The notes beneath the pieces are model-generated. The model ran no database searches. It was not told the origin of the DNA and saw nothing but the letters and a program-made list of their open reading frames with translations. The position numbers were made by a program, and so were the translations under genes. This document shows, piece after piece, positions 26,411 to 28,063 of a stretch of 32,000 nt of DNA. Each line of letters begins with the position of its first letter. The stretch's first letter is position 1. The stretch is from Candidatus Electrothrix sp. GW3-4 (GTDB lineage: Bacteria > Desulfobacterota > Desulfobulbia > Desulfobulbales > Desulfobulbaceae), in contig NZ_CP147990.1 of assembly GCF_037902255.1 (NCBI RefSeq), forward strand, positions 1 through 32,000, written 5' to 3'.

Positions 26411-28063
26411 ATGGCTACACCGGAGGAAAAGCATAGTTGTTTTCTATTAAATTTTTTCAAAGGCCCAGCTGATACCTCTTCGGCGCCGGAATCAGGTTCA
26501 GCAGATTTACCGGATGAAGCGTCGGTATCAGTCGACTCAGGGCAAGGACAGGCAGACATCAGTAATGATGTCTCTGGTGATGCAGGTAGCGGTCTGCAAC
26601 TGGGTGAAGAACAGCTCAACGCTGGGCTGGAGGCAGTGCAAGCGGATCCGCTTGCCTTTATGGGGAAGCTCCCTGCGAAGTATGATGCGCAAGGCGAACT
26701 GCTCAGCTCAGGGAAATCGCTTTTTGACGAAGAGGCCATCCGTGAGAAGTCCTTTGTTGATGCCCGTGATGGAAAGCGGCAGGAGCTCACCGAGCTGGAT
26801 GTGGTCGCTGCTGGGCGGGTAGCATTTGCAAAAAATGACCAGGCAGATGACTTTGTCGACTCCTTCCTGTACTCGGGATTACAGGGAATGGAAGAAAACG
26901 GGTTGATGAGTGCCCGGCTGGAGGAGTCGCCCTGGTCTGATGATTATTGGGCCATCTATCTGGGGATGCTAGGGCATCGTTATGCTGAACCCCGTTTTCC
27001 GGGGGCCTGGGATTGGAAGGCCAATTTTGATTATATTCAGAAGAACCCTGCGTTACAGATTGTGGAAAGCGGTGATAGCGATGCCGTGAATCGACTCTCC
27101 CCCTCGGAAAAATATGATATTCTGGTTGGTGATAAGGGTATGACCCTGACCAGCAGGATGTGGGATGAGGGGAAAAAATACTATTCCCGCAACGGCAAAG
27201 TGGAGCCGTGGATGGGGCTCTGCCACGGTTGGGCCCCGGCTTCCTACATGCTGCCCCGTCCCACGGCGCCCGCAACAGTGTTGGCAGCAGACGGAAAAAC
27301 ATTTATTGTTTTTTATCCTTCCGATATTAAGGCGCTGGCTACCCTGCTTTGGGCCAAGGTCAAGACGGACTCTCGCTTTGTCGGTGGGCGTTGTAATGAA
27401 AAGAATCCAACTGTTGATCCCCAGAGCGGACGAATTCTGGCAGGAAAATGCTTTGATACCAACCCCGGTACCTGGCATCTTGCGGTGGTGAACCAGATAG
27501 GAGCTTCCCAACGGAGTATGGTCCTTGATGCCACCTATGATTATGAGGTCTGGAACCAGCCTGTTGTTGGCTATGCGTACAGGTATTTCAATCCGCAAAA
27601 GATGCGTTATGCCCATTCTCTGTTCGAGGCCTCTGTTTTGAAAACAAGCTTTGATAACGATAGATTTGGCCAGTATCGGGACCGGGAGACCGAGACCATC
27701 ATCGGGATTGCGATGGATATCTCCTATACCGTAGAGACAGCACCGGAGCATCGCTCAAGTGACAGTGCTCAGTACGACAGAGTGCAGACGGTGCGCTATT
27801 ATTACGATCTGGAACTTGATGCCCTCGGCAATATTATCGGCGGTGAGTGGTATCAGAATGCCCACCCTGATTTTCTCTGGACCCCTGAAAAAGGGAGCAG
27901 AGCTGTCGCCTACTGGGAAAAACGCTATGGGGTAGCAGGGAGCTGGAAGAGTGAGGAACCGCTTGCCAAGGAATGGTGCCAGGTTGCGGCTATGACCTCA
28001 GGGTATCAGCACGCACCGTTGGCTGTTATTGTGGAGCAGCTGATCAGATTCTCCAACTCCTGA
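26411..28063 (+). CDS. GP42 / transglutaminase-elicitor-like protein, paralog 1 (putative Cys-His-Asp transglutaminase or protease)
   Basis: 550 aa. Strong RBS AAGGAGGAG. WMGLCHGW (Cys271), GTWHLAVVNQ (His356) and LDATYD (Asp373), in the order expected for a transglutaminase/papain-like triad. VWNQPVVGYAYRY (aa 380-392) closely matches the Pep-13 peptide VWNQPVRGFKVYE of Phytophthora GP42 transglutaminase. No signal peptide. Acidic Ser/Gly-rich N-terminus. Confidence 0.75.
   Translation: MATPEEKHSCFLLNFFKGPADTSSAPESGSADLPDEASVSVDSGQGQADISNDVSGDAGSGLQLGEEQLNAGLEAVQADPLAFMGKLPAKYDAQGELLSSGKSLFDEEAIREKSFVDARDGKRQELTELDVVAAGRVAFAKNDQADDFVDSFLYSGLQGMEENGLMSARLEESPWSDDYWAIYLGMLGHRYAEPRFPGAWDWKANFDYIQKNPALQIVESGDSDAVNRLSPSEKYDILVGDKGMTLTSRMWDEGKKYYSRNGKVEPWMGLCHGWAPASYMLPRPTAPATVLAADGKTFIVFYPSDIKALATLLWAKVKTDSRFVGGRCNEKNPTVDPQSGRILAGKCFDTNPGTWHLAVVNQIGASQRSMVLDATYDYEVWNQPVVGYAYRYFNPQKMRYAHSLFEASVLKTSFDNDRFGQYRDRETETIIGIAMDISYTVETAPEHRSSDSAQYDRVQTVRYYYDLELDALGNIIGGEWYQNAHPDFLWTPEKGSRAVAYWEKRYGVAGSWKSEEPLAKEWCQVAAMTSGYQHAPLAVIVEQLIRFSNS

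Follow-up and report, generated by a model that had tools for sequence, protein, structure and literature searches.

The first 32,000 nucleotides of contig NZ_CP147990.1 of Candidatus Electrothrix sp. GW3-4 (hereafter the window) contain two open reading frames (ORFs), ORF A and ORF B, whose products are relatives of GP42, the Phytophthora transglutaminase that is the source of the peptide Pep-13. Pep-13 is a pathogen-associated molecular pattern (PAMP) and is the ligand of the potato receptor PERU and of a receptor in parsley. A first-pass annotation of the window described a "nearly intact" Pep-13 epitope in both proteins and assigned the DNA to a deltaproteobacterial-type genome; the assignment is essentially right, the source being a cable bacterium of the Desulfobulbaceae. 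The two genes and the features within them are as follows:

26411-28063, + strand: ORF A, 550 amino acids (aa), GP42-family (PF16683) papain-like Cys enzyme, the 'long' paralog, with N-terminal leader and linker (Pfam and 3tw5 matches)
26411-26464, + strand: conserved N-terminal peptide of ORF A, an A-type paralog, MATPEEKHSCFLLNFFKG (comparison of A-type paralogs)
27221-27226, + strand: Cys271-His272 'CH' motif of ORF A (GLCHGW, residues 269-274; alignment and conservation)
27527-27529, + strand: invariant Asp373 of ORF A, the 'putative triad Asp' of the first-pass annotation (aligns with the Asp of 'VADVTAG' in GP42)
27548-27586, + strand: Pep-13-equivalent segment of ORF A, VWNQPVVGYAYRY (residues 380-392; translation)
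30421-31890, + strand: ORF B, 489 aa, GP42-family (PF16683) papain-like Cys enzyme, the 'short' paralog (Pfam match and AlphaFold2 model)
31048-31053, + strand: Cys210-His211 'CH' motif of ORF B (GLCHGW, residues 208-213; alignment and conservation)
31354-31356, + strand: invariant Asp312 of ORF B (alignment and AlphaFold2 model)
31375-31413, + strand: Pep-13-equivalent segment of ORF B, VWNQPVLSYSYRY (residues 319-331; translation)

ORF A and ORF B are 63% identical to each other, and a 550-aa homolog of the ORF A type, WGN25_00100 (P0021) of Candidatus Electrothrix sp. GW3-4, has the same length as ORF A. Translation of the window agrees with the positions at which the first-pass annotation had placed the two segments. 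When compared with Pep-13 (VWNQPVRGFKVYE), the ORF A segment is identical at 7 of 13 positions (positions 1-6 plus Gly8) and the ORF B segment at 6 of 13 (positions 1-6). Phe9 of Pep-13 is replaced by Tyr in both proteins, and positions 10-13 (KVYE) are unrelated to the corresponding residues (AYRY in ORF A, SYRY in ORF B), such that the differences fall at positions 7 and 9-13 in both segments, and at position 8 as well in ORF B. The family alignment places an 8-residue insertion directly after the motif in the bacterial proteins. The description of the epitope as nearly intact therefore holds for its N-terminal half, which is identical in both proteins (with the Gly kept in ORF A and the aromatic character of Phe9 kept as Tyr), and is overstated for its C-terminal half; neither segment is similar to Pep-13 over the full 13-mer. 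Both segments retain Trp2 and Pro5. Pro5 is reportedly required in Pep-13. An analog of the peptide that carries the W2A exchange has been described as 'nearly inactive' (PMC6895089).

In six-frame translation, the window contains the hexapeptide VWNQPV two times, compared with 0.0002 occurrences expected from composition, and VWNQP was recovered in 0 of 100 shuffles, indicating that the match to Pep-13 is not due to chance. Both proteins also match the Pfam family PF16683 (TGase_elicitor) over most of the domain and pass its gathering threshold of 25 bits, ORF A with an E value of 4.6e-38 (131.4 bits, profile positions 23-334 of 361) and ORF B with an E value of 1.5e-40 (139.5 bits, profile positions 24-334 of 361). 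ORF A, which was the one searched, gave a match to chain 3tw5_A of the GP42 crystal structure (E 7e-28, about 305-330 residues aligned), and the profile alignment puts its VWNQPV residue for residue, and column for column, on Pep-13 of GP42. An AlphaFold2 model of ORF B, built from a 71-sequence alignment (mean predicted local distance difference test [pLDDT] score 88.4, predicted template modelling [pTM] score 0.88), had 3tw5_A as its sole significant match in the PDB when searched with Foldseek (E 5.4e-18, probability 1.00, TM score 0.71 normalised to the target), with no other PDB structure, papain-like ones included, matching at E<=0.001. These results indicate that the bacterial proteins ORF A and ORF B are truly related to the GP42 transglutaminase of Phytophthora, as the first-pass annotation had proposed from the motif, that the model of ORF B shares the 3TW5 fold rather than an unrelated one, and that the segments are equivalent in position to Pep-13. 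They are new members of a known family, and databases already label some of their orthologs accordingly.

A short identical hexapeptide, taken alone, would also fit an origin by chance, by convergence or by recent horizontal transfer from an oomycete. Against such an origin stand the full-length homology and the common fold, the expected frequency of the hexapeptide, and an identity to the oomycete proteins of only 21-26%. In a neighbour-joining tree of the family, moreover, the window proteins and their close relatives formed one terminal cluster, lying apart both from the oomycete cluster and from a large bacterial group whose members mostly carry a leader, and the tree thus sets the window proteins in a deep bacterial clade far from the oomycetes. 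The full-length homology, the alignment, the fold match and the tree together refute chance, convergence and recent transfer, to which we assign virtually no probability.

The part of Pep-13 that the window proteins share is also the part that the family conserves. In an alignment of 21 sequences, which included proteins from cable bacteria, Thiothrix, Thiocystis and a Crocosphaera metagenome-assembled genome (MAG) together with seven oomycete-type proteins, V319-W320-N321-Q322-P323 (ORF B numbering) were invariant. We also aligned three sets of sequences to the family hidden Markov model (HMM): close homologs from bacteria (120), oomycete-type proteins (120) and representatives of clusters at 50% identity (148). 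Across these 388 sequences from bacteria and oomycetes, the V, W, N and P of VWNQP were essentially 100% conserved and the Q was conserved in 81-99%, being replaced mainly by His; the Cys, the His after it and the Asp located 7 residues upstream of the motif were likewise conserved in all three sets. In a scan of genome loci, [DG][YA][EQ]VWNQP was among the two stretches of highest conservation. After position 6 the two groups part, with [RY][SG][FY]x[VI]xE in oomycetes and x[SGA]YxYxY in bacteria. The near-invariance of V, W, N and P supports the earlier suggestion that the epitope represents an ancient functional element, and it shows this part of the fold to be constrained. The Pep-13 match is the core signature motif (VWNQP) of the GP42 family; it marks shared ancestry and says nothing about plants.

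We therefore consider it highly probable that the two segments represent the signature strand of the GP42/TGase_elicitor family and that they resemble Pep-13 by descent from one constrained motif. VWNQP would match Pep-13 because both come from a single ancestral motif, one that appears to have been under near-absolute purifying selection family-wide, and what plants evolved to recognise would be the surface of the oomycete enzyme that tolerates mutation least. The position of the motif, which follows the invariant Asp and appears to start a long core beta-strand, may be the basis of the constraint. Pep-13 has been described as "apparently unique to Phytophthora" (PMC7773600); its N-terminal half, Trp2 and Pro5 included, is the invariant signature of a very large and mostly bacterial family. 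Such invariance accounts for the difficulty that Phytophthora has in mutating the epitope, and it raises the question of whether Pep-13 receptors see bacterial homologs. Nothing connects the motif in Electrothrix sp. GW3-4 to plants or to plant immunity, and natural exposure of the window proteins to plants is implausible, given that the proteins are leaderless and that their host, a cable bacterium, lives in sediment.

The first-pass annotation considered the motif unexpected outside Vibrio, a judgement that does not survive a survey of the family. Searched with a family profile, 1.84 billion cluster representatives yielded 3,594 family proteins at E<=1e-3 and 1,565 at E<=1e-30, which puts the family at about 3,600 clusters at 50% identity, and a scan of bacterial genomes, with one genome per GTDB species, recovered at least 554 family loci. 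The best 80 of these at least 554 loci belong to Electrothrix, Electronema and the Thiotrichaceae (Thiothrix, Thiolinea, Leucothrix, Cocleimonas and Thiofilum), and further to Myxococcota, Oligoflexia/Bdellovibrionales, Methylococcales, Thiocystis and the Crocosphaera MAG. The orthologs from Electrothrix gigas and E. aarhusensis are already named "Transglutaminase elicitor" by NCBI. Homologs of GP42 have been said to be limited to oomycetes and some marine Vibrio (PMC4915311), a statement that is out of date given the 3,594 clusters and the at least 554 bacterial loci. Secreted Vibrio homologs are credited to Reiss et al. 2011 where PMC4915311 cites that work. One such protein, the plasmid-borne homolog WP_233902700.1 of Vibrio owensii, aligns with 98% of ORF B at 41% identity; it has a signal peptide, carries the motif VWNQPVIGYDVVF and ends in a ricin-type lectin domain. 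It also has the N-terminal region of ~100 aa and the C-terminal helical region, which are therefore features of the bacterial type and not of one clade. Its gene (L085, 4929-6764) lies on the mobilizable 97-kb plasmid NZ_CP025798.1, and it is annotated as a lectin-domain protein only, under a product name that omits the GP42-like domain. Two further observations concern the breadth of the family. The fungus Catenaria anguillulae (Blastocladiomycota) carries GP42-type proteins (P0163 and P0240) about 54-59% identical to the oomycete enzyme, and the eukaryotic range is thus wider than the oomycetes. Several members (P0241-P0244 and P0250, of 1,100-1,230 aa, and the myxobacterial L066 and L074) are two to three times the usual length and contain two or more matched stretches or long fused ORFs, which indicates tandem GP42-like domains or fusions to other domains.

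The residues conserved around the putative active site suggest that the window proteins are functional. GLCHGW of ORF A and ORF B aligns with GISHAW of the 3tw5 chain, where Ser occupies the position of the Cys (the GP42 motif being Cys290-His291); we take this chain to be the C290S mutant. Among close homologs the Cys of the CH motif is conserved in 100% and the His in about 99%. Because the Cys, the His and the other invariant residues are kept, ORF A and ORF B are probably active acyl-transfer or hydrolytic enzymes, be it transglutaminases, protein-glutamine deamidases or proteases, and the conserved residues would be compatible with Ca2+-dependent transglutaminase activity. In its account of 3TW5, PMC10318531 describes a papain-like fold in which the catalytic His has moved to directly after the Cys (the 'CH' motif), and it gives as partner of this His in GP42 either an Asn of catalytic importance, located on core strand beta2, or an Asp that belongs to a helix outside the core. 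The first-pass annotation had proposed a triad Asp about 7 residues before the motif. Asp373 of ORF A and Asp312 of ORF B are invariant and precede the motif Val by exactly 7 residues; their role in a triad is doubtful, both because the sites given in PMC10318531 differ and because Asp312 lies in a short strand (residues 310-312) of the ORF B model. In the same model Asn321 opens a long strand (residues 321-333). The motif Asn probably corresponds to this beta2 Asn of GP42, an identity that would explain both the invariance of VWNxP and the reported loss of enzyme activity in Pep-13 mutants.

Neither ORF A nor ORF B has a hydrophobic N-terminus by hydropathy, and each starts at the first possible start codon downstream of an in-frame stop, leaving no room for a hidden upstream leader; the earlier remark that both proteins lack secretion signals is thus confirmed. 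A hydrophobic N-terminal window was present in 0 of 116 close homologs, compared with 71% of oomycete-type proteins and 83% of family representatives. This leaderless subclade of the GP42 family is undescribed so far. Because ORF A and ORF B belong to a clade without signal peptides, they most likely act in the cytoplasm.

Some members of the leaderless clade carry terminal extensions. The A-type paralogs of Electrothrix and Electronema have in common the N-terminal peptide M[AS]TPxxKHNC[FP]LLNFFKG, which in ORF A is followed by a low-complexity linker to about residue 63 (window 26411-26600). In Electrothrix this linker is rich in acidic residues and Ser, and in Electronema it is rich in Cys and His (GCGCG...HDHSHDHDH, metal-binding-like). 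Peptide and linker could serve for targeting or tethering, or as a protease-removable pro-peptide. We set aside the idea that the ORF A peptide forms an amphipathic membrane helix, its hydrophobic moment being modest (0.37). Leaderless homologs of the Thiothrix type (P0081, P0093, P0096, P0120 and others) have a Pro/Thr-rich linker followed by a conserved amphipathic tail (e.g. ...LPWWRRLLNALFGG; hydrophobic moment 0.5-0.76) that resembles the C-terminal membrane-targeting helix of MinD, which suggests that these proteins may be tethered to the cytoplasmic face of the membrane.

These extensions bear on an alternative in which ORF A and ORF B leave the cell by a non-classical route and act on the envelope as GP42 does on the oomycete wall, for example by cross-linking periplasmic or junction proteins of the cable filament, with KHxCFLLNFFKG as a sorting or anchoring signal. 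The characterised relatives are extracellular, GP42 being a cell-wall protein (PMC4915311) and the Vibrio homolog one that combines a signal peptide with a lectin domain; the conserved peptide and disordered linker of the A-type paralogs, and the linker and amphipathic tail of the Thiothrix type with their hint of membrane tethering, would also suit such a role. However, a signal-peptide-like N-terminus is absent from the entire sample of clade members, ORF B has no extension at all, the products of the two genes between ORF A and ORF B likewise lack hydrophobic leaders, and amphipathic tails more typically tether proteins to the membrane from the cytoplasmic side. We regard non-classical export as very unlikely and favor action in the cytoplasm.

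ORF A and ORF B flank two genes on the same strand, giving the order ORF A, caspase-like gene, adaptor gene, ORF B:

28107-29144, + strand: caspase-like (Peptidase_C14) protease, 345 aa, with a C-terminal beta-sandwich-like tail (PF00656, E 8.7e-10)
28425-28436, + strand: His motif AGHG of the caspase-like protease (conserved)
28575-28586, + strand: Cys motif MDCC of the caspase-like protease (conserved)
29125-30273, + strand: adaptor-like protein, 382 aa (overlaps the caspase gene by 20 nucleotides)

Homologs of the caspase-like protein keep the His (GHG) and Cys (D[CA]C) motifs. The adaptor is 100% identical to WGN25_00110 of Candidatus Electrothrix sp. GW3-4, and its model (pLDDT 90.8) consists of two carboxypeptidase-regulatory/Ig-like beta-sandwich domains and a helical C-terminal domain; we found in it no enzyme signature and no similarity to any enzyme. 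The combination of GP42-like, caspase and adaptor genes was present at 20 of 81 GP42-like loci, comprising nearly every Electrothrix locus retrieved and many from Electronema, as well as Thiocystis violacea and the Crocosphaera MAG; Thiothrix and myxobacterial loci were without it. At the other 61 loci, no divergent caspase or adaptor genes came to light in an iterated HMM search, and all-against-all clustering of the flanking ORFs found no other neighbours conserved across phyla. The adaptor gene always follows the caspase gene, and the pair always co-occurs. It was also found without a GP42-like gene, beside an alpha/beta-hydrolase-like protein or an M10-like metallopeptidase, and the GP42-like gene therefore occupies a variable-enzyme slot next to a constant pair. 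We observed the constant pair in several phyla (window 28107-30273; L002, L004, L082, L083 and L084), and the enzyme gene beside it varies. A protein of 491-494 aa beside the caspase (Thiocystis, L084) was considered as a divergent GP42-like protein and rejected (hhalign probability 0.2%); it has weak, sub-threshold alpha/beta-hydrolase matches.

The layout of a constant pair and a variable enzyme resembles that of a modular conflict or cell-death system. PADLOC assigned the C14 protein to its generic 'caspase' model only (E 1e-16) and gave no match for the GP42-like proteins or the adaptor, and the NCBIfam model NF047832 (caspase_w_EACC1) scored the C14 protein at 48 bits, below its cut-off of 140; no family-specific model of a known caspase-bearing defence or conflict system in PADLOC-DB or NCBIfam was matched above threshold. 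Cable bacteria have been reported to carry caspase-domain genes of unknown function, and unexplained "ghost cells" were discussed in the same 2025 paper (PMC12163305). Literature searches linking cable bacteria with transglutaminase found nothing. The GP42-like enzymes may act together with, or under the control of, the caspase-like protease. In a stronger form of this proposal, the four genes would constitute a programmed-cell-death or conflict module of the multicellular filaments, with the caspase-like protease as trigger or activator and the cytoplasmic GP42-like enzymes as effectors that cross-link or degrade cell contents, as in the formation of ghost cells. Consistent with it, the same-strand order of the four genes is shared by Electrothrix and Electronema and is found again in a gammaproteobacterium and in a MAG from a cyanobacterium, the genes for the caspase and the adaptor overlap and remain together, the caspase retains its catalytic residues, the enzyme slot accepts different enzymes, and the leaderless clade, among the best 80 of at least 554 loci, occurs mostly in filamentous or multicellular lineages. 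That lineage bias could itself come from the use of the best 80 loci; moreover, the proposal draws on gene order and sequence, the PADLOC and NCBIfam matches are generic or below the family cut-off, and most leaderless GP42-like genes are far from any caspase. We regard a cell-death module as rather unlikely. Quite unlikely, in our estimation, is a broader conjecture that joins two separate ideas, namely that the cluster is an undescribed 'caspase plus transglutaminase' cell-fate module acting in ghost-cell formation or filament fragmentation (cf. caspase and transglutaminase-2 in animal apoptosis), and that PERU-type receptors detect secreted bacterial homologs, which would make Pep-13 a cross-kingdom and not a Phytophthora-specific pattern. 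The cluster of two leaderless GP42-like enzymes and a caspase-like protease, conserved and unstudied, is nonetheless a candidate for involvement in cell-death and ghost-cell phenomena.

Several points weigh against the account of ORF A and ORF B as cytoplasmic enzymes of GP42 descent that are linked to a caspase-like protease. The role of the motif Asn, and the closeness of the motif to the CH site, are suggested by the order of secondary-structure elements in the model; catalysis by the leaderless members is predicted from the residues they keep; and the absence of a leader was judged by hydropathy, with non-classical export as the alternative. In addition, the caspase-adaptor pair occurs without a GP42-like gene, and most leaderless GP42-like genes (Thiothrix, myxobacteria) have no caspase gene within 6 kb, indicating that the functional link is facultative.

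Directly upstream of the cluster, and on the same strand, lies a dense signalling block (14802-26273), the members of which were identified by reading their translations and not by Pfam search:

14802-18689, + strand: hybrid sensor protein, about 1,290 aa
18703-22566, + strand: hybrid sensor protein, about 1,290 aa
22573-23787, + strand: response-regulator-like ORF
23819-24514, + strand: response-regulator-like ORF
24501-26273, + strand: 590-aa ORF, receiver-PAS-GGDEF-like

Housekeeping genes occupy positions 1994-13585 and encode a prepilin peptidase (A24), dihydroorotate dehydrogenase B subunits, enzymes of the shikimate pathway (3-dehydroquinase, shikimate dehydrogenase and EPSP synthase), a thioredoxin-reductase-like flavoprotein, a YkuD L,D-transpeptidase and a rhodanese/metallo-beta-lactamase fusion.

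Among the known systems closest to the window proteins is Phytophthora sojae GP42 (PDB 3TW5), the source of Pep-13 and Pep-25. The window proteins belong to the same PF16683 family, have the same fold, and share the Cys-His motif GxCHxW, the signature D-x6-VWNQP and the block GGEW...HPDFLW. They differ from GP42 in lacking a signal peptide and pro-region, in the addition of the bacterial-type N-terminal domain (~100 aa) and C-terminal helical region (~55 aa), in the insertion that follows the motif, and in the second half of Pep-13, where RGFKVYE is replaced by x[GSA]YxYRY. The secreted Vibrio homologs are alike in the motif and in the bacterial N- and C-terminal regions, which are included in the match to ORF B; unlike the window proteins, the Vibrio owensii protein starts with a classical signal peptide and ends in a lectin domain, and its gene has no caspase or adaptor neighbours. 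With the papain-like Cys peptidase/transglutaminase superfamily (PMC10318531), ORF A and ORF B share a Cys nucleophile on an N-terminal helix followed by an antiparallel sheet, and they conserve the 'CH' variant of GP42, yet 3TW5 was the one papain-like PDB structure to which the model could be matched. Finally, the C14 protein resembles bacterial caspase-like modules (orthocaspase/metacaspase, Peptidase_C14; EACC1-associated, NF047832) in its conserved His and Cys, in its pairing with a non-enzymatic partner and in the variable enzyme gene that adjoins it, whereas it differs from them in its score below the NF047832 cut-off, in its merely generic PADLOC assignment and in the window having no NTPase or other known conflict-system component adjacent to it.

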